From NCBI GenBank assembly GCA_003138485.1, contig PLGF01000083.1, positions 50,333-97,162 on the forward strand: DNA of 46,830 bases. Reading direction: 5' to 3'. The stretch is from Verrucomicrobiales bacterium (GTDB taxonomy: Bacteria; Verrucomicrobiota; Verrucomicrobiia; Limisphaerales; Palsa-1400). The notes below the pieces were generated by a model. That model was not told where the DNA came from and searched no databases. It saw only the letters and a list, made by a program, of their open reading frames with translations. Below are positions 6,344 through 46,830 of the stretch, one piece after another. The position numbers and the translations under genes are program-made. Position 1 is the stretch's first letter. The number at the start of each line of letters is the position of its first letter.

Positions 6344-6380
6344 ATCATCAAAAGTTGATTGCTCGCGCGGACGTTTCCCG

Positions 6381-22219: not shown

Positions 22220-22230
22220 GATGTTCAGCG

Positions 22231-23694: not shown

Positions 23695-23757
23695 CTTGAT
23701 TCACTTTATGAGCATTGGACTGTTGCCCGGCCCCAAGGCCAGGCACGATTCACTCTT

Positions 23758-24525: not shown

Positions 24526-25469
24526 GCTGTCCTGGGAGGCCCCTCTCTGAGCCAATGCCCCACTGCCAGCATGCAGCCGATTGCCAGCGAATACGTCACA
24601 AATCCAAACCACTCATGCACAAACATGGCCGCCTCCTGGTCAAACGCCTGTCTCACCAGCACGATCACCAGCAGCCGGATCAAATTGCACCCCACCACCA
24701 GCGGAATCGTCAGCGCGATCATCCCCGCCCGCTTCCAAATCGAGCGGTGAGCCAAAAACGCGAAAACCGTCGTCACCGCCAGCAACGCCACAAAGCTGCG
24801 GATGCCGCTGCACGCCGCCGCCACGTCAAAGTTGATCTTCCCGCTTGCATCAAAGAGCGTTGTCCCATGAGCCATTACCGGAATCCCCAGCACAAATCCG
24901 CAAATCCATGCCGTCAGCTTCACCGTGAAGATTCGCAACGGCAGCGTCCAGCCGTCCAGGAAAATCCCGACCGGCATGCAAAAAACGAACAAAAAAAACG
25001 GAAAGAAGCTCGCCGCCAGCGTCCTCCATCCCCACGCCAATCCCACCAGGCTGTAAAGGCCAAAGAACAGCGCCACAAGCGACACACGGGGCTGCTCCGC
25101 GAGGAATCCGAGAATGTGCAAGACCAGGGCCAGCCCGGTGAGAATCAACCCCGGCCACCACGGCCCGGCCATTGACGCCGCCAATTCCTTCCGTTTGACC
25201 CAGAGCAACACAGCCACGACCGGCGGGATCAAATTCCCCTGGCTTGAATCCATCGAGGGCATGTTCCAGGCGTGGTACATCCAGAGAAACAACGAGGGCC
25301 GGGTCGTATCAAAATTGAATGAGCTGATCCCCCAAAACTCAAAGAGCACGCACCAGGCCGCCAGCAAACACAGAAAAAAGCCCTTCTCCGGCACCCGCGC
25401 CCAGTACCGTGCGAACTCCTCTGGAAAGGAGGCCTCCGGCGCAACCTCGGTTTTTGGGACAATGTCCAT
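24522..25469 (-). CDS. Exosortase/archaeosortase-family membrane transpeptidase
   Basis: Multiple TM helices; catalytic Cys (VAAACSGIRS), Arg (NLIR) and His (HEWFG). Confidence 0.9.
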   Translation of the reverse strand: MDIVPKTEVAPEASFPEEFARYWARVPEKGFFLCLLAAWCVLFEFWGISSFNFDTTRPSLFLWMYHAWNMPSMDSSQGNLIPPVVAVLLWVKRKELAASMAGPWWPGLILTGLALVLHILGFLAEQPRVSLVALFFGLYSLVGLAWGWRTLAASFFPFFLFVFCMPVGIFLDGWTLPLRIFTVKLTAWICGFVLGIPVMAHGTTLFDASGKINFDVAAACSGIRSFVALLAVTTVFAFLAHRSIWKRAGMIALTIPLVVGCNLIRLLVIVLVRQAFDQEAAMFVHEWFGFVTYSLAIGCMLAVGHWLREGPPRTA

Positions 25470-25476
25470 CGGCCAC

Positions 25477-25506
25477 ACCTTACACCGTCACCTCCTCCGG
25501 GCGCAA
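25477..25506 (-). promoter_or_regulatory. Candidate promoter TTGCGC-N18-TAAGGT, 7 nt before the exosortase ATG (leaderless-type geometry)
   Basis: Read directly from the minus strand: ttgcgc ccggaggaggtgacggtg taaggt gtggccg ATG. Confidence 0.4.
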
Positions 25507-25612
25507 TCCCATCCGTTCACCTCCCGCCCCGTTCCCTCGCGCAATCTGTCGGGGCGGCCCCGCGTCCGCCATCTCCCTTGGGCCGCCAAAAACTACCGCA
25601 AATTGGCGCGGT

Positions 25613-25801
25613 TCAGGGTTGTTTGGTGTAAGGCGCGGGTTCTTCGCGGAGAGCGCTGGAATGAACCGCGCGGCCCCGGATGGCCAGTTCCCGTTCGCGC
25701 AAGGCATCAAGCAGGCGCAACTTCTCCCCCACGGTCCGCGCCGCGAGCTCGCGCCGCAGGGCGCGTTTGCTTTCAAGAATCTTTTTCAATTTCGCGTCCA
25801 T
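25613..25801 (-). CDS. Small basic helical hypothetical protein, 62 aa; third gene of the TA-like cassette
   Basis: MDAKLKKILESKRALRRELAARTVGEKLRLLDALRERELAIR...REEPAPY; protein-like amphipathic pattern; overlaps the upstream ORF. Confidence 0.55.
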   Translation of the reverse strand: MDAKLKKILESKRALRRELAARTVGEKLRLLDALRERELAIRGRAVHSSALREEPAPYTKQP

Positions 25802-26027
25802 CAGGCACTTGGCCGACAATCAAAAAAGTTCTGATCAACTCCCCATCACCGCAAACTGTAAAGCCGGGAAATCTCTTAAACCACTTGTCTGCCGGAACCT
25901 CAGGTTCGCTGTCCAGCCAATGCGCCAGCAGGGTGAGTTGTTCGTAAGAAATCCTTCGCTCGCGCATTCGCGCCAGGAGACGGGCAAGGAGCCGATCAGG
26001 GAGCTTCTCGCGACGAATTCCAGGCAT
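25773..26027 (-). CDS. Small protein, 84 aa; candidate RelE/DUF4258-like toxin
   Basis: LLARMRERRISYEQL resembles the HAxxRMxERxIS motif of DUF4258-type proteins, followed by short beta-strands (WFKRF, FTVCGDG, LIRTFL). Confidence 0.55.
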   Translation of the reverse strand: MPGIRREKLPDRLLARLLARMRERRISYEQLTLLAHWLDSEPEVPADKWFKRFPGFTVCGDGELIRTFLIVGQVPDGREIEKDS

Positions 26028-29461: not shown

Positions 29462-29570
29462 TGTGCCGCAGAACACCAACAAGCCCTTCCTGAACCCTGG
29501 TAAACTATATTTCTTTTCCTGCCCGATTTGCCAATCGACATTGCCAATTGAAACTTCAGCCGTTTCAGCA

Positions 29571-29598
29571 AGCCTATTATGCTCCGCCACGTTGTCAA
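29571..29598 (-). promoter_or_regulatory. Candidate promoter for the histidine kinase (TTGACA-N16-TAGGCT)
   Basis: Perfect -35 at 29593-29598 and -10-like hexamer at 29571-29576. It lies inside the spurious N-terminal extension of the track ORF. Confidence 0.5.
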
Positions 29599-33291: not shown

Positions 33292-33828
33292 CTAAATTTT
33301 CTCCGCCTTTTCATAGACAACCATCTCACCCTCGCCGCGGAGGTCGGAGGGATGGTAGCGCGGGATGGGCATTTGCAATTGCTTGAATTCGACCGGCGAC
33401 ACTTTTTTGTCCACCAGGCCGACGGCCACGGCGACGCCGTAGATGATGGCTTCAGGGCGCGGCGGGCAGCCTGGGATGTAGAAGTTGACGGGGATGACTT
33501 TTTCAACCGGGCCGAGCACGGGGTAGGAATCGTGCCAGATGCCGCCGCCGCAGGCGCAGCCGCCGATGGCAAAGACGAGCTTGGGAGCGGGCATGGCGTC
33601 ATAGGCGCAACGCAGGGCGCGCGCGGTGGAGCGCATGGCCGGCCCCTGGCAGAGCATGACGTCGGCGTGCCGCGGGGAGCCGACCAGCTTGATGCCGAAG
33701 CGCTCGACATCATAGTAGGGAGTCAGGACATTGAGGACCTCGATGTCGCAGCCGTTGCAGCCGCCGCTATTGGCATGGTAAACCCAGAGTGAGCGGCCGA
33801 ACATTTTCTGGCAAAGATTTCTCAGCAT
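33292..33828 (-). CDS. Group 4 [NiFe]-hydrogenase small subunit (HycG/EchC/NuoB-like)
   Basis: GGCNGCDIE, SPRHAD, GGCACGGG, PGCPPRP. Confidence 0.92.
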   Translation of the reverse strand: MLRNLCQKMFGRSLWVYHANSGGCNGCDIEVLNVLTPYYDVERFGIKLVGSPRHADVMLCQGPAMRSTARALRCAYDAMPAPKLVFAIGGCACGGGIWHDSYPVLGPVEKVIPVNFYIPGCPPRPEAIIYGVAVAVGLVDKKVSPVEFKQLQMPIPRYHPSDLRGEGEMVVYEKAEKI

Positions 33829-33833
33829 GGGGT

Positions 33834-34358
33834 TTAATCCAGTTCGATTTTGATGTCATCGACCAGCGGTTCGGATTCCAGGAAGGAGCGGGAGCGGAAA
33901 ATCCAGCGTTCGTTTTCCAGATCGTCAAAGCGGTAGCCCTTCAGCTTGAGCTGTTCCAGGGGCGAGGTTTCCTTGAAACAACGGCCGCACCGCTGGCAGG
34001 TGCTCATAAACAAATCCAGGCGCTGATGCACGTCGCTGATCTTGTTGGTGGCGGTTTCAAACTCGTGGCTCATGGTGATGGCTTTCTCCGGGCAGACATC
34101 CGAGCAGCGTCCGCAGTAGGTGCAGCGGCGGCCCAGGTATTTGAGGATGCGAACTTCCTGGCAGACATCGAGCACGAGGATTTCGCGGGCCGGACAGTTG
34201 TTGGCGCAGGCGGCGCAGCCGATGCATTTCTGGGCGTCGAAGATGGGCCGACCGCGGAAGTTCTCCGGCACGGGCCGCGGGTGGGCGGGGTAATCAAGGG
34301 TGACGCGGCCGGCTTTGAGGCCGACCATCGCTTCTTTGAATTTGCTTGTCAGGGACAT
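33834..34358 (-). CDS. 4Fe-4S subunit of the group 4 hydrogenase (HycF/NuoI-like)
   Basis: TLDYP...FRGRP, CIGCAACANNCP, CTYCGRCSDVCP, CQRCG. Start trimmed to ATG 34358, with GGAG RBS. Confidence 0.9.
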   Translation of the reverse strand: MSLTSKFKEAMVGLKAGRVTLDYPAHPRPVPENFRGRPIFDAQKCIGCAACANNCPAREILVLDVCQEVRILKYLGRRCTYCGRCSDVCPEKAITMSHEFETATNKISDVHQRLDLFMSTCQRCGRCFKETSPLEQLKLKGYRFDDLENERWIFRSRSFLESEPLVDDIKIELD

Positions 34359-34371
34359 GATAGCATCTCCA

Positions 34372-35298
34372 TCAATGACCGTAACCCGCCAGAGCCAGCG
34401 CCGCGAAGGCCACGACGAGCAGGCCGGCGAAGTAACGGAGGGCCTGGTCAATCCGGTAGCGGGCGTGGGTCGCGGCGACGGCCGTGACGACCAGGACGAT
34501 GACCAGCACTTTGGCCCAGAAGAGCAGCCAGCCCAACGGGAAAGGCAGGCCCGATCCCCACGGCACAAAGAGCGCCGCGAACAACGCGCTGTGAATGACC
34601 AGCCGCGCCATCTGCGCGTACTTGAACAGCGCCAGCTTGGGGCCGGAGTATTCCATCAGCGGCCCTTCCATTATTTCCGTCTCGGCCTCGGATATGTCAA
34701 AGGGCACCCGCTGGACAAAGGCCTGGAAAGACAGCCCCATCACCACCAGCAAAATCAAGCCCGACCACGGAATGCCTGGCACGGCATAAACCGAGCCGTT
34801 CAAGACGGCGTCGAGCCGGAAGGACCCCGCGTGGACCGCGCCGGCAAGAAGAGCGATGGCAAACAAAGGCTCCAAGGCGATCATTGTCATCATCTCCCGG
34901 CCGATGCCCAAGAGCGAATAAGTCGATCCCGCCGCCAGGCCGCCGAGCAGTGTGCATATCCCGCAGAGGGTCAGCAGGTAGATGAGGAGAATGATGTCGC
35001 CCGCGCCATTCATGGGGGCGGGAAAGCCCATGGGCACCAGGCAGGCGGTCGTCAGCGCCGCGGCCAGCGCGAGCCGGGCGACAAATCGTTGCAGGGCGGG
35101 TGATTCGCCCGATTCAATGTCCTCCTTGCCCAGAAGCTTGAGCAGGTCGAAGTAGGGCTGCCAGAGGGGCGGACCGCGGCGCGATTGCAGACACGCGGTG
35201 ACCTTGCGCAGGATGCCTTCGCACAACGGCGCGATGAGCAGGACCACGACGACGTTGGCCAACCCGCCCGCAATCATCCGAATGACGTTAGGATTCAT
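34372..35298 (-). CDS. Membrane subunit of the group 4 hydrogenase (HycD/NuoH-like)
   Basis: RKVTACLQSRRGPPLWQPYFDLLKL, RVPFDISEAETEIMEGPLMEYSG. Start ATG 35298, with AAGGAG RBS. Confidence 0.92.
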   Translation of the reverse strand: MNPNVIRMIAGGLANVVVVLLIAPLCEGILRKVTACLQSRRGPPLWQPYFDLLKLLGKEDIESGESPALQRFVARLALAAALTTACLVPMGFPAPMNGAGDIILLIYLLTLCGICTLLGGLAAGSTYSLLGIGREMMTMIALEPLFAIALLAGAVHAGSFRLDAVLNGSVYAVPGIPWSGLILLVVMGLSFQAFVQRVPFDISEAETEIMEGPLMEYSGPKLALFKYAQMARLVIHSALFAALFVPWGSGLPFPLGWLLFWAKVLVIVLVVTAVAATHARYRIDQALRYFAGLLVVAFAALALAGYGH

Positions 35299-37000
35299 CT
35301 GACTCCTTTGCGGATGACTCCGCGGCAATCCCCCTGGCGCGCGCCAGCTTGAGCAATTCCTCCGGGGACCAGACCTTGACGGCGCCCGAGCGGAGGTCGA
35401 TGGTTTCGAGGCGGTCCGTGCAGGAGAAGCACGGGTCGATGCTGCCCAGGGAAATGGTCATGTCGGCCAGTTGCTGGTCCTTGATCATGGCGGGAACGCC
35501 CTGGAGGTTCTGATAGGTGGGGGCGCGCACGCGCCAGCGGCGCGGGCGGTTGTTCTCGCCGGTGATGACGAAATGATGGCACTCGCCGCGCGGCGCTTCG
35601 ACCGAAGAGATGCCCAGGCGGCCGACGGGCAGTTCGTCCTTGATCTCCAACTGGATCGGGCCGCTTTCCATTTTGTCCAGGCATTGGCGGATGATTTTGA
35701 TTGACTCAAACACTTCGCGCGCCCGCACCACCAGGCGCGACCAGACGTCGCCGTCGGGGGCGGTGATGACATCGAAGTCCACGCGGTCATAAGCGGCGTA
35801 GGGGTGGTCGCGGCGGCAATCAATCCCGACGCCCGCCGCGCGCGCCACCGGGCCGATCAGCCCGGCTTCCTTGACAAGATTGCGGTCGGCGACGCCGACG
35901 CCGCGGGTGCGCTTCTGGATGTTGCGGTCCTGGAGCACGGCGGCGGTGACGGCCTGCCATTCGGTTTCGAGGCGGGCGAGCACCTGGCGGAGTTCGTCTT
36001 CCAACGCGGGCGTCAAATCCCGGCGGACGCCGCCGATGACGCAGAGGCCGTAGGTCTTGCGGTTGCCGGTGATTTTCTCGGCAATCCACATGACCGGTTC
36101 GCGAATGCGGAAGGCTTGCATGAACAAAGTGTCAAAGCCGACGATGTGGCAGGCCAGGCCGACCCAGAGGAGGTGGCTGTGAAGGCGTTCGAGTTCGAGG
36201 AGGATGGAGCGGAGGTACTCGGCGCGCGGCGGGGCCTGCAAGGCGGCGGCGGCTTCGACGGCCTGCGCGTAGGTGACATTATGCACGCAGCCGCAGATGC
36301 CGCAGATGCGCTCGGCCATGATCGGGATGTCGTTGTAGCCCAGAACGGACTCGGCCAGTTTCTCGATGCCGCGATGGACCATGAAGCCGCGGTATTCGCA
36401 GCCGCGCACCCGCTCCCCTTCGACGTAGAGCCGGAAATGGGCAGGCTCGTCGAGGGTGGGATGAAACGGGCCGAAGGGCACGACCGTGCAACCCTCCGGC
36501 GGTTCGTCGAACTTGAATTCGCGCTCGTCATCGTAGTCATCGGGGACGAAATTCCACGGAATGTCCTTGCGCAGCGGGTGGACCCCATCGGGCCAGCCGT
36601 CCGGCAGGACCAGGCGTTTCGGATACGGGTGGCCGGACAGTTCGATTCCGACCAGATCGCGCAATTCGCGCTCGGCCCAGTTGGCCGCCGGCACGACCGT
36701 CGAGATGCTCTCCACACAGGGTTGGCTGGCGGGAATTTCGGTCAGGATGCTGCAAAGCAGGTGGTCGCGATCAAACGCGAAATTGTGCGCCACCAGGAAC
36801 GAGCCGGAAAACGACCGGTCATCCGCGCCAATGCTCGTGATGAAACGGGCATCCAGGTCGCGAAAAACGTATTCGCAGACGGCCTTCAGCGCGGACGCTT
36901 CGACGAAGACAAACAAGCAATGATCCGAGGGGATATCCGCCCGCCGGATGGCGGGGCCTAACTTCGCCTTCAACTGATCGAGTTTTTCGCGCGCCTTCAT
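35288..37000 (-). CDS. Group 4 [NiFe]-hydrogenase large subunit (HycE-like NuoC-D fusion with cleavable C-terminal extension)
   Basis: L1 motif ERICGICG, L2 motif DPCFSCTDR followed by a tail of about 40 aa; WAERE, HPLRKD, HRGIEK, EAPRGE. Confidence 0.95.
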   Translation of the reverse strand: MKAREKLDQLKAKLGPAIRRADIPSDHCLFVFVEASALKAVCEYVFRDLDARFITSIGADDRSFSGSFLVAHNFAFDRDHLLCSILTEIPASQPCVESISTVVPAANWAERELRDLVGIELSGHPYPKRLVLPDGWPDGVHPLRKDIPWNFVPDDYDDEREFKFDEPPEGCTVVPFGPFHPTLDEPAHFRLYVEGERVRGCEYRGFMVHRGIEKLAESVLGYNDIPIMAERICGICGCVHNVTYAQAVEAAAALQAPPRAEYLRSILLELERLHSHLLWVGLACHIVGFDTLFMQAFRIREPVMWIAEKITGNRKTYGLCVIGGVRRDLTPALEDELRQVLARLETEWQAVTAAVLQDRNIQKRTRGVGVADRNLVKEAGLIGPVARAAGVGIDCRRDHPYAAYDRVDFDVITAPDGDVWSRLVVRAREVFESIKIIRQCLDKMESGPIQLEIKDELPVGRLGISSVEAPRGECHHFVITGENNRPRRWRVRAPTYQNLQGVPAMIKDQQLADMTISLGSIDPCFSCTDRLETIDLRSGAVKVWSPEELLKLARARGIAAESSAKESDES

Positions 37001-37001
37001 T

Positions 37002-38930
37002 TCAGTGTTCTTTCGGGGCGGCGGAATTCACGGACGGCGCCGGGGGCGCGCCGCCGAGCCAGCGGAAATAACGTTTGATCTCGCCGTAATAGCCATGCGC
37101 CACGTAGCGGTTACATTCGGCTTCGCGCGCGTAACCGCAAAGCCACGGAGGCGCGGCGCGGCTGGGAGCGGCGCCGAGCCTTGAAATGAACCGGGCCGCC
37201 AGAAACGCCAGCCCCAGGACGGCCAGCAACGCCAGCGGAACGAAGATTGAATGCGACTCGACCCCGGAAAGGCCGGTCCATAGGCCGCCGGAGAATGCCG
37301 GGGCGCCGCCAAGGGTCTTGCCAAAGCCTTGCGGGCTTGCCGCCAGCGCGGCATGGACGAGGCCGTAACCAATGGCTGGCATGATCCCGAACATCAGGCA
37401 GATCAGCGCCAGCAACAGTTGGGGCATTTGCATCATCGCGCCAACTTCAAGCCGTCCCCGGCCCGCCGCCCTCTCCTTGACCAGCGCGCTGGTGCGCGAA
37501 AGGAAACTTGCGCCAAAGAACTTCACGAAAGAAGCCAGGGTCAGCGCGCTCGTCAGAATGGCAATGGCGGCGCAGACCGACAGATAGCCCGCCAGACTGC
37601 TGCCTTGCACCGTCGCGACGTAAATGGTCCATTTGCTGGCGAAGCCGCTGAAGAGCGGGACGCCCGAAATGGACAGGGAAGCAACCAGCGCCGTGGCGGC
37701 CGTCAGAGGCATATACTTGAGCAATCCACCCATCTTATTCAAGTCCTGCGTGCCCGTGGCGTGCAGCATGGAGCCGGCATTGAGGAACAGGAGCGCCTTG
37801 AAGACGCCGTGGTTGAGGGTGTGAAAAAGCGCGCCGATCATGGCCAGCGCCGCCAACGAGGCCGCCGCCGGACCCGCCGCCGGCAGGAGGGCCATGCAGG
37901 CCCCAAAACCGAGGAGGATGTAGCCGACCTGGCCGATGCTGTGGAAGGCCAGCAGCCGCTTGGTCTGCTCCTGCTTGAGCGCCTGCATCGTGCCGGTGAA
38001 GAGCGAAATCGTCCCAAGCGCCGCCACCACCAGGCCCCAGCGGGCCAGGGGAAAGTCGGCCTGCCCGCCGGCGGGCACCAGCCACAGGAAATAACGCATC
38101 ACGCCATAGACCCCGGTCTTGATCATCACACCGGAGAGCATCGCGCTTACGGGCGACGGCGCCGCCGGGTGCGCGTCCGGCAACCACACCTGGCCGAAGG
38201 GCCACATCCCCATCTTGATGCCAAAACCGGCCAGGAACAGCCCGAATGCCAACGCCGCCAATACGGGTTGCGCGTGCAGCAAAGCCGGCAGGTTCGCGCT
38301 GACGGTGTCAAAGTCGTACTTCACCCCGGCGCTGGAATTGGCGGATGCGCCCGCGCCAGCCAGAATTTCCGCGCCGATAAGGGTCGCCGCGCAAGCTATT
38401 TGCATCATCAGCAGGAACTTGTTGGCCGCCCGGACGTTCTCCGGTTTCTTGTGCTCGAATCGGATGAGCGCGTAGCCGGGCAGGGTCATCATCTGCCAGA
38501 AAATGAAGAAAAACCACATCATGTCCGTCGTGCTCAACAGTCCGTACATCGCCGCCAGAAACAGGAGAAAATAAGGATAATACCGGGCAACGCCATACTC
38601 CGCGTAATGCTTCATATAGGCGATGGAATAAAACGAAGCCGGCACAGCGATCAGAGCCGCCAGCATCAGGAACAGCGCGGTCAACCCGTCCACATGCAGA
38701 CGCAAGGCGAATCCGATGGAAGGCACTTTGCAAAACACTTCGGAGCCGGCGGAGGCGCCGCCAGCCAGCACCGTCGCCACGGCGATGAAGATCAGCGTCG
38801 AAGTCGCGGCCGTTACCAGGAAGGCGATCCACCCTGCCAGCGTCCGGTTCCGCGCGGTAAGCAACGTCAGCGCCGCTCCGGCGACGCAGATGAGAATGGA
38901 GGCGAATACCGCCTGTTCGGGAGTCATCAT
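37002..38930 (-). CDS. Antiporter-like membrane subunit (HycC/HyfB; NuoL/M/N-MrpD family)
   Basis: Many TM helices; GFGIKMGMWPF, WLPDAHPAAPSPVSAMLSGVMIKTG, KRLLAFHSIGQVG, HGVFKALLFL, PLFSGFASKW. Confidence 0.92.
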   Translation of the reverse strand: MMTPEQAVFASILICVAGAALTLLTARNRTLAGWIAFLVTAATSTLIFIAVATVLAGGASAGSEVFCKVPSIGFALRLHVDGLTALFLMLAALIAVPASFYSIAYMKHYAEYGVARYYPYFLLFLAAMYGLLSTTDMMWFFFIFWQMMTLPGYALIRFEHKKPENVRAANKFLLMMQIACAATLIGAEILAGAGASANSSAGVKYDFDTVSANLPALLHAQPVLAALAFGLFLAGFGIKMGMWPFGQVWLPDAHPAAPSPVSAMLSGVMIKTGVYGVMRYFLWLVPAGGQADFPLARWGLVVAALGTISLFTGTMQALKQEQTKRLLAFHSIGQVGYILLGFGACMALLPAAGPAAASLAALAMIGALFHTLNHGVFKALLFLNAGSMLHATGTQDLNKMGGLLKYMPLTAATALVASLSISGVPLFSGFASKWTIYVATVQGSSLAGYLSVCAAIAILTSALTLASFVKFFGASFLSRTSALVKERAAGRGRLEVGAMMQMPQLLLALICLMFGIMPAIGYGLVHAALAASPQGFGKTLGGAPAFSGGLWTGLSGVESHSIFVPLALLAVLGLAFLAARFISRLGAAPSRAAPPWLCGYAREAECNRYVAHGYYGEIKRYFRWLGGAPPAPSVNSAAPKEH

Positions 38931-39415
38931 GATCGTGCTCCTTCGCTGACGACACTGCCAATGAGGGCGGTGAGTATGGCCAGGGTCGCCCGGATGGCGG
39001 GCGAAAGAGCGGGCGAGGGTTTCAAGGACGCCGGTTGCGCGCCCAGGAGCCAGACCCGCGTTTTGCCGCCGGTTTCAACGCACTTGGCCAGCGTTCCAAG
39101 GGAAAGGTTGTGGGTGGAAATCTGCGGGAAACGCGCCGCCATCTCCTCCGAACTCAGGAAAACCGTCGAACCGGGCGCCGCGCCAATGTCCACTGCGTCC
39201 AGGAAAACCAGGTGGTCAAATCCTGTGCCGGCACAGCTCGTCACCAGCCGCTCTGGATCGGTACCGGCGACGACCACGTCGGGCACGCCGGCGCGGGTCA
39301 GAGCCTCCGCCAGCCGCACTCCGAAGCCGTCGTCGCCGCCTTGGACGTTGCCCAGCCCCATGAAACAAACACGGCCCCGAAGGGCTGACTGAAGTTGTTG
39401 GCACAAGTCGGGCAT
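38927..39415 (-). CDS. Hydrogenase maturation endopeptidase (HycI-like)
   Basis: MGLGNVQGGDDGFG, GTDPE, LVFLDAVD, STHNLSL, LGAQP. Start ATG 39415 overlaps the upstream TGA. Confidence 0.88.
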   Translation of the reverse strand: MPDLCQQLQSALRGRVCFMGLGNVQGGDDGFGVRLAEALTRAGVPDVVVAGTDPERLVTSCAGTGFDHLVFLDAVDIGAAPGSTVFLSSEEMAARFPQISTHNLSLGTLAKCVETGGKTRVWLLGAQPASLKPSPALSPAIRATLAILTALIGSVVSEGARS

Positions 39416-40263
39416 CAGATGTCCTCCCCAAGCTTTTTGATTTGTTCGTACGTGAAAACGGGGCCGTCCACGCATATATAGGCGACGCCGATGCAGCAAT
39501 GGCCGCACTTGCCGACGCCGCATTTCATGTAGCGCTCGAGAGTGGACATGATGTGGTTTTCCTTGAAGCCCAGCGCCAGCAGGTCCTTGATGACGAAGCG
39601 GAACATGACCGGCGGCCCGCAGACAAAGGCGGTGGTGTTGTCCACCGGCATGTCCACGCCGCTCTTCTTGAAAAGGCTGCCAACGACGCCGACGTGGCCG
39701 TCCCAGCCGTTGGCGGCGCGATCCACGGTGAGATGACACTCCATGGCGCCGCCCTTCTCCCAGGCGCGCAAGTCTGTCAAGTACATCAATTCGCCGGGCG
39801 TTTTCGCGCCGTAAAACACCTGGATCCGACCATACTTCGCCCGGTTTTGCAGCGCATAGACGATGCAGGAGCGCAGGGGAATCAGCCCGATGCCGCCCGC
39901 GACGAAGGTGAGGTTCCTGCCTTCGTATTCCTCCATGGGAAAGCCGTTGCCGTAAGGGCCGCGCACGGCGAACTTGTCGCGCGGCTTGAGTTGATGGAGC
40001 GCGGAGGTGCAACTGCCGACCTGGCGGATGGTGAAGAAGGTTTCCTCCTCGGTCGGGCTGGGGGGAAGGGAGGCCGGGAATTCGCCGACGCCGAAAAGGG
40101 AAACCTGGGCGAACTGTCCGGGGCGGAAGTGTTTGAACTTCGCCTGCTCGGCCGGGTCCTCGAATCGCCAGTAAAATGTCTTTACCTCGGGGATGTCGTC
40201 CACCACCCGGTCCAGGACCGCCAGCTTGGGCAGATAAATATTCTCAGTGTTGGGCGGGTTCAT
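39415..40263 (-). CDS. FAD/NAD(P)-binding [2Fe-2S] subunit (AsrB/HydG/PyrK-like)
   Basis: FRPGQF, VRGPYGNGF, VAGGIGLIPLRS, CGPPVM, LERYMKCGVGKCGHC...CVDGPVF. Confidence 0.9.
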   Translation of the reverse strand: MNPPNTENIYLPKLAVLDRVVDDIPEVKTFYWRFEDPAEQAKFKHFRPGQFAQVSLFGVGEFPASLPPSPTEEETFFTIRQVGSCTSALHQLKPRDKFAVRGPYGNGFPMEEYEGRNLTFVAGGIGLIPLRSCIVYALQNRAKYGRIQVFYGAKTPGELMYLTDLRAWEKGGAMECHLTVDRAANGWDGHVGVVGSLFKKSGVDMPVDNTTAFVCGPPVMFRFVIKDLLALGFKENHIMSTLERYMKCGVGKCGHCCIGVAYICVDGPVFTYEQIKKLGEDI

Positions 40264-41335
40264 TTTTCGGCGGTTCAGGCGCGGCGCGCCGGATCATTTC
40301 GACGATGCTGGGCATTCCAATGTCTCCGTGGCAAACGGCGGCGCAACGGCCGCAGCCCACGCAAGCGACAGCCAGTTCGCGCTGGATAAAGTATTGAGCC
40401 AGCTTGCGGAAAAAGCGGCGGTTGCGGCGGTCATGCACGGCGCGGCGGGGATTGAAACCGCCCGCCATCCGCGTGAAACCGCTCAGGCCGCAGGAATCCC
40501 AGATGCGCACGCGCTCGACTTCCTCCGGCCCCACCTGGCGGTCGGAAACGGTGAAACAGGTGCAGGCCGGACAGACATAAGTGCAGCCACCGCATTCCAG
40601 GCAGCGGTTGCCGATTTCCTCCCAAGTCTTTTCCAGAATCGTCCCCTGCGAAACATAGCGGACGGTGGCGGTAAACCAGCTCGTGGTGGTTCCAAAACGT
40701 TTGCGCACCTCCGCCAGAATGGCGCGCCGGCGTTCGACGCACGCGCCGGTTCCCTTGCGGAATATCGGCTCGGAGAAAAGCTCTTCGCCGGCCGCCGTTC
40801 CGGCCACGGCCATGAATTGCCCGTCGCCAAGGTCCATGAGCTGCAAATCAAAATGCTCCCGCGCCGCGGGGCCGGTGTCGGCGCACAGGCAGAAGCAGTC
40901 GTTGCCGATGTCCTGCGCCGGGTCGGTGCAGACCATGTTCACCAAAAAGAGGTTCTTGCGCCGCCGCTCGTAATAGACATCCCGGTAATCGCGTCCGAGG
41001 TAGAACCGGTCCAGATGCCACAGGCCCGCAACGTCGCAGGAGCGGATGCCGAAGATCGCGCGCGGGGGCGCCTCGCAAGCCGGTTCAATGGTCATCGCGC
41101 CGTTCTTCCCGTGAACTCTCATCAACCGCTCAATGTGCGGAAAGACAAACCGCTTGGGCGGGTAATACGGATTGGGCAGATGAAGCCGCACCTGAGCGCG
41201 GTTCTCGTCCGTGACGGTGTCGAAATAGCTGTCGCGGCCCCGGCCGCAGAAGGGCGCGATAACTTCCCGGCCCCGCGCGCGGAGCAGGTCCACGATCTTC
41301 AGAACGTTCCCACTGTCAATCAGACGCGCCTTCAT
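40244..41335 (-). CDS. 4Fe-4S dicluster subunit (AsrA/HydB sulfhydrogenase-beta-like)
   Basis: PKRFVFP, IFGIRSCD, D.YY..RR, CFC, CLECGGCTYVCPACTC, R.WDSC, CVGCGRCAAVC. Confidence 0.88.
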   Translation of the reverse strand: MKARLIDSGNVLKIVDLLRARGREVIAPFCGRGRDSYFDTVTDENRAQVRLHLPNPYYPPKRFVFPHIERLMRVHGKNGAMTIEPACEAPPRAIFGIRSCDVAGLWHLDRFYLGRDYRDVYYERRRKNLFLVNMVCTDPAQDIGNDCFCLCADTGPAAREHFDLQLMDLGDGQFMAVAGTAAGEELFSEPIFRKGTGACVERRRAILAEVRKRFGTTTSWFTATVRYVSQGTILEKTWEEIGNRCLECGGCTYVCPACTCFTVSDRQVGPEEVERVRIWDSCGLSGFTRMAGGFNPRRAVHDRRNRRFFRKLAQYFIQRELAVACVGCGRCAAVCHGDIGMPSIVEMIRRAAPEPPKNEPAQH

Positions 41336-43353
41336 GATGCCCCCGCTTCCAGGCGCACCGGAACGACCGAGCCGCCGCCGGCCGCGCCGAGTATCTCCCG
41401 TTTTAATTGCCGCACGAAGTACGGCACAAACGCCGTCCCGCCCCGAACTTCGGGCGTCACCCGCGCCGTGGAGGAGAGCGAGCCGCCGGCGGTGCTCAGG
41501 CGGATGCGTCCGCCGTCCCGGATGCCGAGGCGCTTGGCGTCATCGGTGTTGATCTCGACGAAACCGTCCGGATAATCCAGCAACAGGAGACGGTATTCGC
41601 GCTTCAATGTTTCGCTGTGTCTGATGAGGACATTCTGGTGCCAGTAATAGAGCGAATGGCCGAACACCAGGGTGAAGGGGTATCCGTCCGGATTGCCCGC
41701 CGATTTGGGCGGGCGGACGACGGGAGCAAATTTGAAGGGGCGGCTCATTTGATCATCGGCAAACAGGAAGCGGGTTCCCAGAGGGCGGTCAGTCGTGCAG
41801 GGCCATTGGCGGCCGTAATCGCGGGCGAGGTTCTCATGGCTGGCGCCGCTGTAGAAGGGGATGACCGTCCCGATCTCCTGCATGACATCCGCGGCGGATT
41901 GATAATTCCAATTGGCCCCCATGGCGCGGGCCAGGCGCGTCAATTGCTCCCAGGCGGGCATCGGTCCCTCGGGCGGGTCAATCACCCGTTCAGCGAGTTG
42001 AATCCGCCTCTCAGTGCTTGTGAAGGTGACGCGCTCTTCGCCAAATACCGTCGTCGGCAGCACCACATCGGCGAACTCCGCCGAATCAGTCATGAACAGA
42101 TGCTGCACCACCACCAGCTCGCATCGCCGCATCGCTTCGGCGGCGTCCCCGAAGAACGCCGTGCTAACGGGGTCATAACGCCCCAGCCAGAGCGCCTTCA
42201 GCGGCGTGGGACCGCCGCCAAAGAGCGTCTCGGCGCCCACTCCGGGCACGGCGGGCACCTTCGCTCCCCAGACGCTTTCCAACGCGGCGCGCGCCCCGGC
42301 ATCCGTGACGGGCTGATAGCCCGGCAAGCGGTCCGGCAGCATCCCCATGTCACACACACCTTGCAAATTATTATGCTCCGCCAGCGGAAACACTCCCGCC
42401 CCTTCTTTTCCCAGGTTGCCGGTCAGCAGCGCCAGATTGATGATCGCCCGGATGCTGTCCTCGTCGCGCGCTTCAATCCCGGTCGAGTATAGGATCGCCG
42501 CCGTCCGCGCCCGGCCATAGGCCAGAGCCGCCGCCTCGATCAACTCCGCCGGCACGCCGCATCCTTCGGCGGCCTGCAGCAGGTCGTACTCCCGTGCGCG
42601 GGCCAGAAAAGCATCGCATCCCTCGCAGCGGGCTTTGATGAAGGGCAGATTCATCAGCCCGCGGTCCACGATGACCTTTGCGAGCGCGCCGTACAGGAGA
42701 GATTCAGTGCCCGGTTTGATCTGCAAAAAAATGTCGGCGTTTTCCGCGATCCGATGACGGCGGGAATCAACGACGATGAGCCGGGCGCCGTTGAGCTTGG
42801 CGCGAATGACCCAGCCGCCGATGGTGGGCAACTGCCGGGCAAGGTCAACGCCATCGACAATGATGACGCCGCTGCGGGCCAGTTCGCCGATGGAGTTGGA
42901 GCTGGCGGGGACGCCGGTCATTTCCAGCAGGACGTTCAAGGAGTTGTTGCAATAGACGCCGGCGCCGTGATCCACGTTGTTGGTGCCGATGATGGCGCGG
43001 GCCAGCTTCTGCAGGAGGTATGCCTCCTCGTTGGAGCAGCGCGGCGAATCCAGGAAGGCGACAGATTCGGGGCCGTATTGGTCGCGGATTCTTTTGAGCC
43101 GGGGGGCGACGAAATCGAACGCCTCATCCCAGGAGACTTTTTCAAACCGGCCGTCCTTCTTGATCAAGGGGCTGGTGAGGCGGTCCGGGGAACTGGCCAC
43201 TTCATGCACGTGCCAGCCGCGGACGCAAATCTTCCCGCTGTTGGCGGGATGAGACATGCTCGGATACACCCCTACGATTTTGTTCCCGGCGGTTTCCAGG
43301 TAGATACCACAACCGGTGCCACAGAAAGTGCAGGTGGTGAGCTGGGGGAGCAT
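41332..43353 (-). CDS. FdhF-like molybdopterin-oxidoreductase-family protein with a degenerate active site
   Basis: N-terminal 4Fe-4S motif CTFCGTGC...CVRG and FdhF-like backbone (RCSNEEAYLLQKLARAIIGTNNVD, NNLQGVCDMG, ADVVLP). The catalytic segment reads HGAGVYCNNS and the Arg-loop reads LAEHNN. Confidence 0.85.
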   Translation of the reverse strand: MLPQLTTCTFCGTGCGIYLETAGNKIVGVYPSMSHPANSGKICVRGWHVHEVASSPDRLTSPLIKKDGRFEKVSWDEAFDFVAPRLKRIRDQYGPESVAFLDSPRCSNEEAYLLQKLARAIIGTNNVDHGAGVYCNNSLNVLLEMTGVPASSNSIGELARSGVIIVDGVDLARQLPTIGGWVIRAKLNGARLIVVDSRRHRIAENADIFLQIKPGTESLLYGALAKVIVDRGLMNLPFIKARCEGCDAFLARAREYDLLQAAEGCGVPAELIEAAALAYGRARTAAILYSTGIEARDEDSIRAIINLALLTGNLGKEGAGVFPLAEHNNLQGVCDMGMLPDRLPGYQPVTDAGARAALESVWGAKVPAVPGVGAETLFGGGPTPLKALWLGRYDPVSTAFFGDAAEAMRRCELVVVQHLFMTDSAEFADVVLPTTVFGEERVTFTSTERRIQLAERVIDPPEGPMPAWEQLTRLARAMGANWNYQSAADVMQEIGTVIPFYSGASHENLARDYGRQWPCTTDRPLGTRFLFADDQMSRPFKFAPVVRPPKSAGNPDGYPFTLVFGHSLYYWHQNVLIRHSETLKREYRLLLLDYPDGFVEINTDDAKRLGIRDGGRIRLSTAGGSLSSTARVTPEVRGGTAFVPYFVRQLKREILGAAGGGSVVPVRLEAGAS

Positions 43354-43363
43354 GATATGGAAA

Positions 43364-44374
43364 TCAAGGCGGACCCGCGGACGCCTGGCGGTAGCCAGTC
43401 AGGGCGCGCATGTATTGCGCCCGCTCAAAGGCGGAGGGGTTGGCGCAGTTGATCTGGCTGAGGCTCCCCTTGAGCTGGCCCACCGACTCAAACTTGCATT
43501 TCTCCATCCACGCCGCCAGATCGCGCTCGATGGTGCGGATCTGCCGGATGCCGTCGCGCAACAGCACCGCGCACAACATGGTTGCATCCGCTCCCGCCAG
43601 GAGGAGCTTGAGCACGTCGGCGCCGCTGTACACACCGCTGGTTGCCGCCAGGCTCGCATCCGTATGGCCAAAGAGAAGCGCTATCCAGCGCAGCGGCAGC
43701 CGCAGGGCCGACGGAGAGCTTGGCACGATGTTGGGGGTGATCTCCAGCGTTTCCAGATCAATATCGGGCTGATAAAACCGGTTGAACAACACCAAGCCGT
43801 CGGCCCCGGCCTCATCGAGCCGCGCCGCGAAGTTGGCAAAGTTGGTGAAGAACGGGCTTAATTTCACGGCCACCGGAATCTTCACTTCCGCGCTCACGTC
43901 GCGCACGATTTGCAGGTACTTCCCTTCGATGTCCGCCGCGGTTTGTTTCGCGTCGGCCGGGATGTTATAGATGTTCAGCTCAATCGCATCGGCGCCAGCC
44001 ACCTCGATGTCGCGGGCGTATTTGGTCCAGCCGCCCGACGAGCAGGCGTTCAAGCTGGCGATCACCGGGATGCCGACGGAGCGCTTGGCGCGCTCGACGT
44101 GGGCAAGGTATTCCTGCGGCTCCAGGTTGAATTCCTCCGGTTCGGGGAAGTAACTCAACGACTCCGCGAAACTGGAAGTGCCCCGCTCCAGGCTCTCCTC
44201 AACATCCAGGCGGTCCCTGAGCAACTGCTCCTCGAACAACGAATACAGCACGACGGCCGACGCGCCTGCGTCCTCCATTCGTTTGATGTTGTCAAGCTGC
44301 TGCGAAAGCGGCGAGGCCGAGCAGACCAACGGCGTGCGCAGCTTGAGTCCCAGATAGGTGGTAGTCAGGTCCAT
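43364..44374 (-). CDS. Dihydroorotate dehydrogenase-like FMN protein (PFOR-associated subgroup lacking the catalytic Cys)
   Basis: MDLTTTYLGLKLRTPL, SLFEEQ, PVIASLN, IELNIY (SCPN absent), PVAVKLSPFF, LVLFNRFYQPDID. Confidence 0.85.
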   Translation of the reverse strand: MDLTTTYLGLKLRTPLVCSASPLSQQLDNIKRMEDAGASAVVLYSLFEEQLLRDRLDVEESLERGTSSFAESLSYFPEPEEFNLEPQEYLAHVERAKRSVGIPVIASLNACSSGGWTKYARDIEVAGADAIELNIYNIPADAKQTAADIEGKYLQIVRDVSAEVKIPVAVKLSPFFTNFANFAARLDEAGADGLVLFNRFYQPDIDLETLEITPNIVPSSPSALRLPLRWIALLFGHTDASLAATSGVYSGADVLKLLLAGADATMLCAVLLRDGIRQIRTIERDLAAWMEKCKFESVGQLKGSLSQINCANPSAFERAQYMRALTGYRQASAGPP

Positions 44375-44400: not shown

Positions 44401-46830
44401 CTAGGCGGATGGCTGCACAGGGATGGTGATTTTTGGCTCGACCGGCGTGGCGGGCTCCACCTTGAGCGTGCGGCTCTGCATGAACTGGTAGAATTTCCGC
44501 CGGCTATCGACATCGGACTGCGCCCGTGCGAACAATTGGCGCGCGGCGTCCGGCTTGCTCATGGTGAGCATCTTGAAGCGGTTTTCCGAGAGCAGATAAT
44601 CCTTGATAGGCGCCTTGGGCGGCGGAGAGTCCAATTGCAGCGGATTCTCGCCGAGATCGGCCCGGCGGGGATCATAACGGTAAAGAAGCCACTGTCCGCA
44701 ATCAACGGCCAGCTTTTGCTGGCGCGCTCCCACGCCGATGTCCACCGCGATGCCGTGTGCAATGCAATGGCTGTAAGCCATGATGAGGGACGGGCCGGGA
44801 TAGGACTCCGCCTCGACAAAGGCCTTGAGGGTCTGATCATCCTTGGCCCCCATCGCCACGCTGGCGACGTACACGTTGCCGTAGGCCATCGCGATGAGGC
44901 CAAGGTCCTTCTTGCAGCCCGGCTTGCCGCCGGCCGCGAATTTGGCGACCGCTCCGCGCGGGGTGGCCTTGGACATCTGTCCGCCGGTGTTGGAATAGAC
45001 CTCCGTATCAAGCACAAGCACATTGACCTTCCGTCCGCTGGCCAGCACATGATCCAGCCCGCCGTAGCCGATGTCGTAGGCCCAGCCGTCGCCGCCGATG
45101 ATCCAAACGCTCTTCTTGACGAGATTATCGGCCAGGCTCAGGAGCAGGCGCGCTTCGGGAGAACCGAGCGCCTGCAACTTCTGCTTCAAGACGGCCACGC
45201 GCTCGCGCTGTTCGGCAATCCCCGTCTCGTCAGCCTGGTTGGAATGCAAGAGTTGGTTGGCGAGATCATCGCCGATCGTGCCGGCCAGTTTGATCACCAG
45301 TTCCTGCGCCATGTCCCTTTGCTTGTCCAGCGAAACGCGGAAGCCCATGCCGAATTCGGCGTTGTCCTCAAACAAGGAATTGCACCAAGTCGGCCCGCGG
45401 CCCTGGGCATCCTTCGCGTAAGGCGTGGTGGGGAGGTTGCCGCCGTAGATGGATGAGCAGCCAGTCGCGTTGGCGATGACGGCCCGGTCGCCGAACAACT
45501 GGGTCAGCAGCTTCAAATAAGGAGTCTCGCCGCAGCCGGCGCACGCGCCCGAAAACTCGAAGAGCGGCTGCATGATCTGCTGTTGCCGCAATTGGGACGT
45601 GTTGATCTTGCGCCGGTCCATTTCCGGCAGGCCGAGGAAAAACTTCCAGTTCTCCCGTTCGGACACGCGCAGCGGCTCCTGCGCCGCCATGTTGATCGCC
45701 TTGCGCTTGCTCTCCTTCTTGTCACGGGCGGGGCAGACTTCGATGCAGAGCGAGCACCCGGTGCAATCCTCGGCGGCGACTTGCAGGACAAAGCGCATGC
45801 CTTTCCATTCCGGCGCGCGGGCGGCGGCGGATTTGAACGTGGCGGGCGCTCCATCCATCTGCGCCGCGTCGCAGACTTTGGCGCGAATGGTGGCGTGAGG
45901 GCAAATGGTCGTGCATTTGAGGCATTGGATGCAAATCGCCTCGTTCCAGACGGGTATCTCCAGGGCGAGATTCCGCTTTTCAAACTGCGCGGTCGCCGTC
46001 GGAAACGTTCCGTCGCGCGGGAACGCGCTGACGGGCAGGTCGTCGCCGCGTCCGGCGGCCAGAGTTCCCAGAACGTTCCGCACGAACGGCGGGGCGTCCG
46101 GCGTGATGGGCGGCAAATAGCCGCCCGTGCCATTGACCTTGCTGGTCAGGGGCACTTCAAAGAGGTTGGCCAGGGTGTTGTCCACCGCCTTGAGGTTCTT
46201 CTGCACCACCTCTTCCCCCTTGCGCCCGTAGGTCTTCTTGATCGATTTCTTGATGGCTTCGATCGCCTCGTCCTTGGGCAGCACGCCCGAAAGCGCAAAG
46301 AAACAGACCTGCATGACGGTGTTGATGCGCCCGCCCATCCCGCTGCCGTGCGCCACGCTCGTGGCGTCAATTACGAAGAACCGCGCCTTCCGGTCCACCA
46401 GCGCCTGCTGCACCGGGGTTGGAAGGCGGGGCCAGATTTCGTCGCGCGACAAGGGCGAATTGAGCAGGAACGTGCCGCCGGGCACCAAGTCCCGCAGCAT
46501 GTCGTAGCGCTCCAGGAAGCCGGGCTGGTGGCAGGCGACAAAATTCGCGCGTGTGATTAAATAGCTGGATCGGATTTGCTGCCGGCCGAAGCGCAGGTGC
46601 GACACGGTCATGGAGCCGGATTTCTTGGAGTCATAGACAAAATAGCCCTGGGCGCAATAGGGGGTGTTCTCACCTATGATTTTGATCGAGTTCTTGTTGG
46701 CGCCCACCGTGCCGTCAGCACCAAGCCCGTAGAAGAGCGCCCGGACTACGTCATCGGGTTCGGTCGAGAATTCCGCGTCCACCGGGAGGCTGGTGAAGGA
46801 GACGTCGTCGTTGATGCCGACGGTGAAATG
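44401..46830 (-). CDS. nifJ: Pyruvate:ferredoxin (flavodoxin) oxidoreductase, homodimeric type; 5' part outside the window
   Basis: Frame is open to the window edge (HFTVGINDDV...). GLGADGTVGANKNS, YDSKKSG, CIQCLKCTTICPH, CTGCSLCIEVCP, FEFSGACAGCGET, NATGCSSIYGG, GGDGWAYDIG (TPP), EVYSNTGGQ. Confidence 0.96.
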   Translation of the reverse strand, partial: HFTVGINDDVSFTSLPVDAEFSTEPDDVVRALFYGLGADGTVGANKNSIKIIGENTPYCAQGYFVYDSKKSGSMTVSHLRFGRQQIRSSYLITRANFVACHQPGFLERYDMLRDLVPGGTFLLNSPLSRDEIWPRLPTPVQQALVDRKARFFVIDATSVAHGSGMGGRINTVMQVCFFALSGVLPKDEAIEAIKKSIKKTYGRKGEEVVQKNLKAVDNTLANLFEVPLTSKVNGTGGYLPPITPDAPPFVRNVLGTLAAGRGDDLPVSAFPRDGTFPTATAQFEKRNLALEIPVWNEAICIQCLKCTTICPHATIRAKVCDAAQMDGAPATFKSAAARAPEWKGMRFVLQVAAEDCTGCSLCIEVCPARDKKESKRKAINMAAQEPLRVSERENWKFFLGLPEMDRRKINTSQLRQQQIMQPLFEFSGACAGCGETPYLKLLTQLFGDRAVIANATGCSSIYGGNLPTTPYAKDAQGRGPTWCNSLFEDNAEFGMGFRVSLDKQRDMAQELVIKLAGTIGDDLANQLLHSNQADETGIAEQRERVAVLKQKLQALGSPEARLLLSLADNLVKKSVWIIGGDGWAYDIGYGGLDHVLASGRKVNVLVLDTEVYSNTGGQMSKATPRGAVAKFAAGGKPGCKKDLGLIAMAYGNVYVASVAMGAKDDQTLKAFVEAESYPGPSLIMAYSHCIAHGIAVDIGVGARQQKLAVDCGQWLLYRYDPRRADLGENPLQLDSPPPKAPIKDYLLSENRFKMLTMSKPDAARQLFARAQSDVDSRRKFYQFMQSRTLKVEPATPVEPKITIPVQPSA

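Follow-up and report, generated by a model that had tools for sequence, protein, structure and literature searches.

A formate dehydrogenase-like protein with a replaced active site heads a membrane hydrogenase module and may be a cofactor-free adaptor

The window analysed here is a stretch of 46,830 nucleotides from a Verrucomicrobiales bacterium (assembly GCA_003138485.1, contig PLGF01000083.1). On its reverse strand it encodes P0001, a homologue of the formate dehydrogenase (FDH) FdhF, at the head of genes for a [NiFe] hydrogenase of the formate hydrogenlyase (FHL) type. In P0001 the fold and the N-terminal [4Fe-4S] motif of E. coli FdhF (FdhH) are kept, and the residues that mark formate oxidation are replaced. 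On balance, we consider it rather probable that P0001 is a cofactor-free descendant of FdhH that serves as a cluster-bearing, NuoG-like adaptor in an NAD(P)H-linked, ion-translocating [NiFe] hydrogenase.

The FdhF-like gene and its nine-gene module

The module consists of genes for the FdhF-like protein, beta and gamma subunits of the sulfhydrogenase type, HycI, HyfB, HycE, HycD, HycF and HycG, all on the reverse strand (Table 1). The start of the beta-like gene overlaps the stop of the FdhF-like gene by 4 nt. The best Protein Data Bank (PDB) matches of the beta- and gamma-like subunits are 9nez_B (Sulfhydrogenase 1 beta) and 9nez_C (3.1e-60), respectively. Scores against the sulfhydrogenase equivalog models are below cut-off for beta (NF040829 and NF040833, 142 bits vs 690 and 134 vs 750) and for gamma (215 bits vs 600 and 212 vs 650), and the gamma match to PRK08345 (252 bits) is also below cut-off. 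The HycE-like subunit has both metal-site Cys pairs (RICGICGCVH and DPCFSCTDR) and the C-terminal extension. In Pfam and NCBIfam searches of the module, no HycB-type gene was found, and HydB-like and HydG-like genes occupy its place. The FHL chassis, a HycE/G/F/D/C-type hydrogenase with HycI, is thus present, and a catalytic FdhF with HycB is not. The genome also holds HypD and other [NiFe] hydrogenases. Given the [NiFe] Cys motifs, HycI and HypD, the hydrogenase of the module looks functional.

Table 1. Positions of the module genes, motifs of P0001 and upstream neighbours in the window
Feature	Positions	Strand	Remarks
FdhF-like MopB protein P0001	41332..43353	(-)	ATG start, 673 aa; open frame
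TTCTFCGTGCG, [4Fe-4S] motif Cys8/Cys11/Cys15	43306..43338	(-)	Aligned to E. coli C8/C11/C15
Cys43, fourth [4Fe-4S] ligand	43225-43227	(-)	Aligned to E. coli C42
Former metal-ligand loop NNVDHGAGVYCNNS	42940..42981	(-)	Residues 125-138; Tyr134 at Sec140, Cys135 at His141
Former Arg333 motif LAEHNNLQG	42358..42384	(-)	Residues 324-332; Ala325 for Arg333, Glu326 for Gly334
Sulfhydrogenase-beta-like Fe-S subunit (HydB/ShyB/AsrA-like)	40244..41335	(-)	363 aa; PF17179 Fer4_22; 9nez_B 5.4e-34
Sulfhydrogenase-gamma-like FAD/NAD(P)H + [2Fe-2S] subunit (HydG/ShyC/AsrB/PyrK-like)	39415..40263	(-)	282 aa; PF00175, PF10418
HycI-type hydrogenase maturation protease	38927..39415	(-)	PF01750; TIGR00072 89.7 bits, above cut-off; start codon chosen by eye
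HyfB/HycC-like antiporter-type membrane subunit	37002..38930	(-)	642 aa; PF00361, PF00662; NF005086 hydrogenase 4 subunit B 392.7 bits
HycE-like fused NuoC-NuoD [NiFe] large subunit	35288..37000	(-)	570 aa; Pfam; 7z0s_E (FHL subunit 5) 1.9e-126
HycD/NuoH-like membrane subunit	34372..35328	(-)	PF00146
HycF/NuoI-like 2x[4Fe-4S] subunit	33834..34358	(-)	NF009053 FHL iron-sulfur subunit 116 bits; Fer4 families
HycG/NuoB-like small subunit	33292..33828	(-)	PF01058; NF005012 133.6 bits, above cut-off
Dihydroorotate-dehydrogenase-like (DHOD-like) protein, PRK07565 family	43364..44374	(-)	NF005741 472 bits, above cut-off
nifJ-type pyruvate:ferredoxin oxidoreductase (PFOR)	44401..46830	(-)	N-terminus beyond window; TIGR02176 1132.7 bits

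P0001 matches the Pfam domains PF04879 (Fe4S4, from residue 6), PF00384 (Molybdopterin) and PF01568 (Molydop_binding), all above cut-offs. Among NCBIfam models it scores best with TIGR01591, formate dehydrogenase alpha, and its 557.7 bits fall short of the cut-off (666.25). The nearest solved sequences are catalytic FDHs, namely FdhF of the hydrogen-dependent CO2 reductase (HDCR; 7qv7_S, 1.6e-129) and E. coli FdhH (1aa6, 1.1e-102). An AlphaFold2 model built from a 67-row alignment has a mean pLDDT of 91.1 and a pTM of 0.92. In Foldseek its top match is ForC (8rqz_C), and the query TM-score (TMq) is 0.89 to 1aa6 and 0.90 to 7z0t_A, the FdhF of the FHL complex. As modelled, P0001 keeps the whole four-domain FdhH fold and belongs to the MopB (DMSO reductase) superfamily. 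Among close homologues (the best 120 of 4724 matches, query included, 69-100% identical), Cys8, Cys11 and Cys15 are Cys in 113 of 120, the seven gaps being N-terminally truncated sequences, and Cys43 is Cys in 119, with one gap. A first-pass annotation, made from the letters of this DNA, had called the open reading frame (ORF) full length and the N-terminal 4Fe-4S motif intact. Both statements hold, given the retained C8, C11, C15 and C43 and a 673-residue protein that forms a complete FdhH fold in the AlphaFold2 model.

Ratios of non-synonymous to synonymous substitution rates (dN/dS) against four orthologues are 0.14-0.17 for the FdhF-like gene, 0.09-0.16 for the beta-like gene and 0.11-0.17 for the gamma-like gene; HycE gives 0.12-0.14 (three pairs). 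Purifying selection on the FdhF-like gene is as strong as on the hydrogenase large subunit. A pseudogene or decaying relic was ruled out by these HycE-like values and by an ORF that is intact in every locus covering the P0001 gene.

A scan with one genome per species returned 80 carrier loci, 77 of which cover the ligand loop. In 76 of the 80 the FdhF-like gene is followed immediately by the beta-like gene, and the other four stop at a contig edge. The complete set of nine genes is colinear in 47 loci. Of the 53 loci whose downstream sequence extends for at least 9.5 kb, 44 show this full colinearity and nine miss one gene at the 50% coverage threshold. By record title, the carriers belong to Verrucomicrobiota, Acidobacteriota, Nitrospirota, NC10/Methylomirabilota, Planctomycetota, Chthonomonadaceae, Omnitrophota and Geobacteraceae, and one is a Methylacidiphilum bin. 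Beyond these, a single-protein scan of metagenomes yielded one locus (L087) whose FdhF-like protein is 63% identical to P0126, which itself is 39% identical to P0001. As far as its contig reaches, the gene order of L087 matches the module up to HycD, followed by a Pfam-less ORF and a NuoK-like ORF. The association is therefore older than the close clade.

The HyfB position is variable. Two tandem HyfB-like genes occur in L018, L032, L053, L059, L062, L072 and L078, as well as in L087 (9527-13098), and L046, L047 and L048 have no HyfB match between HycI and HycE.

Of the sampled words of 39415-43353, 58-92% are present in six peat RNA libraries, and contigs from the four libraries that were mapped match across these genes at 99-100% identity. 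One RNA contig (X15 record 6, 39486-42003) bridges the gamma-like, beta-like and FdhF-like genes, and three (X15 record 7, X16 record 13 and X18 record 31) bridge the FdhF-like gene, the DHOD-like gene and PFOR. RNA libraries may contain DNA, and the contigs do not show single transcripts; their depth cannot rank expression, and uncovered bins in X16-X18 carry no meaning. PFOR and the DHOD-like gene were considered as module members and rejected, given that they lie upstream in just 5 of the 80 loci. The gamma-like subunit resembles PyrK, and a DHOD-like/PyrK-like pairing is conceivable.

Replaced residues and cofactor supply

E. coli K-12 FdhF was taken from NC_000913, with TGA translated as selenocysteine (Sec), and placed in a MAFFT alignment of 271 proteins with P0001. 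The metal-ligand loop NNVDCCARV-U-H-GPS of E. coli aligns without gaps to NNVDHGAGV-Y-C-NNS, so that Sec140 becomes Tyr134 and His141 becomes Cys135. VRGQNNVQG aligns with LAEHNNLQG. In addition, GYNPADSHP is GVDLARQLP in P0001 (Asn176 to Asp170, His181 to Leu175), VQDIF is VQHLF (Asp429 to His418), and the canonical TTGR..YHYH (STVREVGHYS in E. coli) is VFGHSLYYWH (Thr579 to Phe564, Arg581 to His566). All replacements that the first-pass annotation had listed recur in this alignment, LAEHNNLQG exactly at 42358-42384. Lys44 is also changed, to Arg45. P0001 thus has Tyr134/Cys135 instead of the Sec/Cys ligand and His141 of an FDH, and Ala325 instead of Arg333, the residue that orients formate in FDH according to a passage of PMC13653126. 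The register of the ligand loop is ambiguous by one residue, because two HMMER alignments disagree: against the Sec-type 9t1s_L the match is ungapped, with Tyr134 on Sec, and against the Cys-type FdhF 7qv7_S a one-residue gap, closed again 12 residues later, places Cys135 on the ligand Cys.

Most replacement residues are fixed among the close homologues. Tyr134, Gly130, Gly132, Asp170, Glu326, Leu330, Arg392 and Gln470 each occur in 120 of 120, His418 and Val442 in 119 and Phe564 in 117, and the clade shows hardly any variation in the NNS and NNLQG flanks. The substitutions are thus neither chance nor sequencing noise. At the Arg333 position the clade has Thr in 109 proteins, Ala in 6, Ser in 4 and another residue in 1, next to the Glu that stands for Gly334 throughout. 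Residue 135 varies: across the 77 loci it is Cys in 51, Ser in 15, Arg in 6, Thr in 2, Gly in 2 and Asn in 1, and across the 120 proteins it is Cys in 93, Gly in 15, Ser in 10 and another residue in 2. Since working orthologues have Gly or Arg here, Cys135 is no obligatory metal ligand. Conservation of the GVYC and LAEH variants in a clade tied to this operon therefore holds for the Tyr and the Glu, and fails for the variable Cys135 and for Ala325, which is mostly Thr.

Changes extend well beyond these motifs. A canonical set of 70 representatives, with Cys/Sec, His and Arg at the three positions, defines 97 columns with a conservation of at least 85%; the P0001 clade keeps 69 and changes 28. 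Changed columns in the ligand loop are C136G, R138G, U140Y and H141x, and those in the Arg333 motif are R333T/A, G334E, Q335H and V338L. Others are K44R, N176D, H181L, P203S/T, G305D, G402R, G453V, D478A, I481Q, T579F, R581H/N and N662x, and the C-terminal P676/K679 segment is missing. Many of these columns probably correspond to contacts of the two molybdopterin guanine dinucleotide (MGD) molecules in the FdhH structure. In a midpoint-rooted FastTree phylogeny with one representative per 50% cluster, the clade is nested in a larger FdhF-like group of 650-700 aa, all members of which lack the Cys-His-Arg set. Among the best 150 representatives, 53 lack both Cys140 and Arg333 in the alignment.

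The Cys-His-Arg set is also missing in many representatives of FdhA/NuoG length (~ 890 aa) among these 150, such as P0137, P0146, P0164, P0166, P0176, P0183, P0202, P0218, P0223, P0224, P0247 and others.

Genome content bears on cofactor supply. In the genome of the window (4.75 Mb, 89.67% complete), no match to MoaA exceeds 55.5 bits (cut-off 284), and MoaC, MoeA_N and FdhD are missing, as are a convincing MobA, FocA and pyruvate formate-lyase (PFL). Among the 50 genomes with loci L005-L054, MoaC is present in 37 and MoeA_N in 37, and it is the identical 13 genomes that lack both. MoaA is found in none of 14 genomes (those 13 and that of the window) vs all eight of the positive genomes tested. 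In positive genomes MoaA, MoaC and MoeA are often on separate contigs, which argues that their joint absence is not the loss of one contig. MoaC occurs in 24 of the remaining 30 carriers, and overall 19 of the 80 carriers lack it. FdhD, which all three E. coli FDHs require according to a passage of PMC13653126, was detected in 1 of the 22 genomes tested. MobA-like matches at E<=1e-25 occur in only 4 of these 22, all of which also hold other MopB enzymes. With two exceptions, PF00384 matches in the 14 pathway-less genomes are the FdhF-like gene and one weak partial match that is probably NuoG. The first exception, G021, has two weak matches besides the FdhF-like gene. The other, G034 (the genome of L038, with no MoaA, MoaC or MoeA), has a second strong PF00384 protein (G034:C4:74273-75337, E 2.0e-48, in a 722 aa open frame) that may be another cofactor-free paralogue.

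What might the FdhF-like subunit do?

Co-folding offers a candidate position for the protein. Residues 1-670 of P0001 modelled with residues 35-363 of the beta-like subunit give an ipSAE of 0.86, vs 0.00 for the best of three controls; at least 94% of contacts recur between runs, and the pLDDT of the partner is at least 77. In calibration, 58 of 80 solved complexes attained that mark, as did 2 of 110 mismatched pairs, counts that are only rough here because custom alignments (A1 and A3) were used. Part of the score may be memory, because an FdhF with an Fe-S partner resembles solved complexes. The predicted interface sets the Cys43 region against the C245/C248/C251/C255 and C325-C335 motifs of beta, which are invariant in A3, and Cys43 touches Cys248 within CxxCxxCxxxC. 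The model supports binding of the FdhF-like cluster face to the beta subunit.

Taken together, these data suggest the following scheme. P0001 retains the entire FdhH fold with its N-terminal [4Fe-4S] cluster, and would have lost both formate oxidation and the binding of Mo/W-bis-pyranopterin guanine dinucleotide (bisPGD). The FdhF-like, beta and gamma subunits would have replaced HycB and the catalytic FdhF on an FHL-type hydrogenase (HycE/G/F/D with HyfB). At the gamma flavin, NAD(P)H would be oxidised or NAD(P)+ reduced. Electrons would pass from this flavin to the beta clusters, HycF, HycG and the [NiFe] site, in a transfer coupled to ion translocation by the membrane arm. Docked on beta by its cluster face, the FdhF-like protein would be a structural, cluster-holding adaptor, as is the NuoG C-terminal domain in complex I. 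Of the elements of this scheme, the lost catalytic residues, the conserved operon, the purifying selection and the many carriers that lack cofactor synthesis are observed. We infer that the cofactor is absent in every clade member, and likewise that NAD(P)H is the redox partner; the direction of the reaction and the order of the subunits are proposals of the same kind. NAD(P)H use and specificity are read from family resemblance only, because the beta- and gamma-like subunits score below the equivalog cut-offs. The reduction of protons to H2 by NAD(P)H is uphill under standard conditions, and the complex may therefore draw on the membrane potential to get rid of reductant, or work the other way, reducing NAD(P)+ with H2 under conservation of energy.

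The first-pass annotation had offered two readings of P0001, a cofactor-less scaffold or electron wire paralleling NuoG and a new Mo/W enzyme that uses the shifted Cys. The former is backed by the carriers that lack cofactor synthesis, the missing FdhD, the changed FDH columns and the co-fold. The term wire needs qualification, since the modelled cluster touches only beta and P0001 may thus lie off the main electron path, on a side branch as cluster N7 does in NuoG. The latter reading is not supported, given a Cys135 that is variable in same-operon orthologues and present in genomes without the cofactor pathway.

Several points weigh against a cofactor-free adaptor. All carriers are metagenome-assembled genomes, and completeness is known for that of the window alone. 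MoaC is possessed by 61 of the 80 carriers, and cofactor use in these is therefore excluded by the sequence argument only. A missing protein ligand alone does not exclude Mo-bisPGD; the metal of arsenite oxidase is not known to have one. The HydB-like and HydG-like subunits are below the NCBIfam equivalog cut-offs. Invariant replacement residues together with a catalytic-level dN/dS are more constraint than an inert scaffold needs. In the co-fold, the single cluster of the FdhF-like protein meets beta, which puts the protein at a branch end, the expected place of a catalytic input subunit.

The last two of these points also speak for re-use of the former cofactor cleft for another ligand, be it a nucleotide, a flavin, another redox cofactor or a substrate, which would make P0001 a second input or regulatory site, possibly in a complex with two donors. 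Y134, E326, R392, H418, V442, Q470 and F564 are invariant or nearly so, dN/dS equals that of catalytic subunits, and all four domains, including both of the dinucleotide-binding type, are kept in a model of high confidence, with the predicted placement at a branch end. Nevertheless, we regard this as unlikely, since no ligand is indicated by any search and G334E, G402R and G453V look more like filling of the cleft. NuoG, moreover, is a cofactor-free MopB domain that stays conserved. We give still less credence to a role as the docking and entry point of reduced ferredoxin, which the upstream PFOR might supply, in a complex that is ferredoxin-driven or confurcates ferredoxin and NAD(P)H. The same-strand PFOR, the RNA-library contigs that bridge to it and the retained [4Fe-4S] cluster fit this idea, but just 5 of 80 loci have PFOR next to the module and the cluster face is taken by beta in the co-fold. 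Ferredoxin-dependent group 4 hydrogenases are not known to need such a subunit.

Could P0001 be an enzyme after all? A new Mo/W-bisPGD enzyme with Cys135 as ligand and a substrate other than formate finds some encouragement in the HMMER alignment that puts Cys135 on the ligand Cys of 7qv7_S, and in the top Foldseek match, B. subtilis ForC (8rqz_C), a working FDH with an RYCQ loop. Yet 26 of 77 loci and 27 of 120 proteins have another residue (Ser, Arg, Thr, Gly, Asn or Ala) in place of Cys135, and Cys135 is kept in 11 of the 13 carriers without MoaC and MoeA. The genome of the window lacks MoaA, MoaC and MoeA, FdhD is all but missing from the genomes tested (1/22), and numerous cofactor-region columns are changed; we judge such an enzyme very improbable. 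An ordinary formate hydrogenlyase, as such operons are annotated in the literature, seems to us hardly credible. HycE is nearest to E. coli FHL subunit 5 and the first gene is FdhF-like, and an acidobacterial 'fdhF, hyf operon', a possible member of this clade, is called FHL in a passage of PMC6018796. Against this, Sec/Cys, His and Arg are lost, the operon has no HycB, the genome of the window has no FdhD, FocA or PFL, and cofactor synthesis is missing from many carriers.

P0001 most likely acts as an iron-sulfur adaptor in a membrane hydrogenase that is uncharacterised but widespread among bacteria of soil and peat, and whose usual annotation is formate hydrogenlyase. A literature search that covered few subscription journals and no supplements found no description of the module as proposed here. 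The acidobacterial operon noted above was read as FHL in a genome-based study, as stated in a passage of Hausmann 2018 (PMC6018796). If the FdhF-like protein cannot oxidise formate, the capacity to convert formate to H2 has been over-called in Verrucomicrobiota, Acidobacteriota, Nitrospirota, NC10 and others. The carriers would instead own an unrecognised NAD(P)H-linked, ion-translocating hydrogenase.

The window also has features outside the module region. Some 3.7 kb past the module end, positions 26564-29590 (-) encode a 1008-aa hybrid sensor kinase with GAF, several PAS, HisKA, HATPase and receiver domains. Positions 22001-26000 combine a strongly negative GC skew (-0.18 to -0.21) with a positive AT skew, and hold reverse-strand genes for a sugar transferase, a DUF3485 protein and the exosortase EpsH. 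Two large ORFs lie at 2-10625 (-), one of >2144 aa with DUF5122 beta-propeller and Calx-beta repeats and one of 1414 aa with an InlB B-repeat-like domain; two Pfam-less ORFs of 531 and 432 aa come after them.

Comparison with known systems

With E. coli FdhF in FHL (1aa6, 7z0t), P0001 shares the four-domain fold (TMq 0.89-0.90, 31-32% identity), the N-terminal [4Fe-4S] motif and a genomic setting alongside an FHL-type HycE/F/G/D hydrogenase. Unlike E. coli FdhF, it lacks Sec140, His141 and Arg333, and 28 of the 97 FDH columns are changed. The module also differs from E. coli FHL in the absence of HycB, in its sulfhydrogenase-type beta and gamma partners and in the existence of carriers without molybdopterin synthesis.

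The beta and gamma subunits of Pyrococcus furiosus sulfhydrogenase I (9nez) are the nearest solved relatives of those in the module, and the gamma subunits have FAD/NAD(P)H and [2Fe-2S] domains in common. However, in P. furiosus these subunits serve a soluble group 3b hydrogenase, whereas here they accompany a membrane-bound group 4 hydrogenase and an FdhF-like protein. B. subtilis ForC (YjgC, 8rqz), a solved Mo-bisPGD enzyme according to its PDB entry title, resembles P0001 in the Tyr-Cys pair of the ligand loop and in having no His after the Cys. Unlike P0001, ForC keeps the Cys at the ligand position (the sixth residue after NNVD, vs the seventh in P0001) and the Arg (PLRGHNNVQG). In passages of Matheus Carnevali 2018 (10.1101/328856), group 4f hydrogenases are linked with fdhA and NuoE/F-like genes, with the remark that experiments are needed. 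The loci described there have fdhA beside NuoE/F-like genes, an arrangement unlike that of the module.

Passages of Wells 2023 (PMC10100899) name Nqo3, ActB and FhcB as the MopB lineages without the cofactor, and assign Cys-less members of a 'cytoplasmic FDH' data set to the Nqo3 family. P0001 would resemble NuoG/Nqo3 as an FDH-derived, probably cofactor-free MopB domain placed between an NAD(P)H-oxidising flavoprotein module and a hydrogenase-derived module. It differs in having no N-terminal [2Fe-2S]/HydA-like domain and in its setting, which is not a nuo operon and includes no NuoE or NuoF. P0001 is also far closer to catalytic FDHs: it scores 110-121 bits against the NuoG models NF005895 and TIGR01973 (the latter 110.5 vs a cut-off of 470), and the first 50 Foldseek matches do not include NuoG. 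This closeness to FDHs, together with a separate 650-700 aa group in the tree, suggests that the cofactor was lost independently of NuoG.

P0001 is best explained as a functional analogue of NuoG rather than a member of its family, and may likewise hold an off-path cluster, as NuoG does in N7. If the adaptor reading is correct, the MopB superfamily would gain one more lineage that lost Mo/W-bisPGD independently, and the module would be an analogue, accessible to experiment, of how NuoG may have come about. A bolder and, in our view, improbable extension is that the module repeats, independently and in living organisms, the step from FHL to complex I. An FdhF that shed its molybdenum cofactor would here have joined a pyridine-nucleotide flavoprotein module to a proton-pumping [NiFe] hydrogenase, and in the emptied cleft the invariant Tyr134, Glu326, Arg392, His418, Gln470 and Phe564 would form a new ligand or redox site. 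Such a site might be a second input, possibly in a membrane hydrogenase of abundant peat and soil phyla that confurcates NAD(P)H and ferredoxin.

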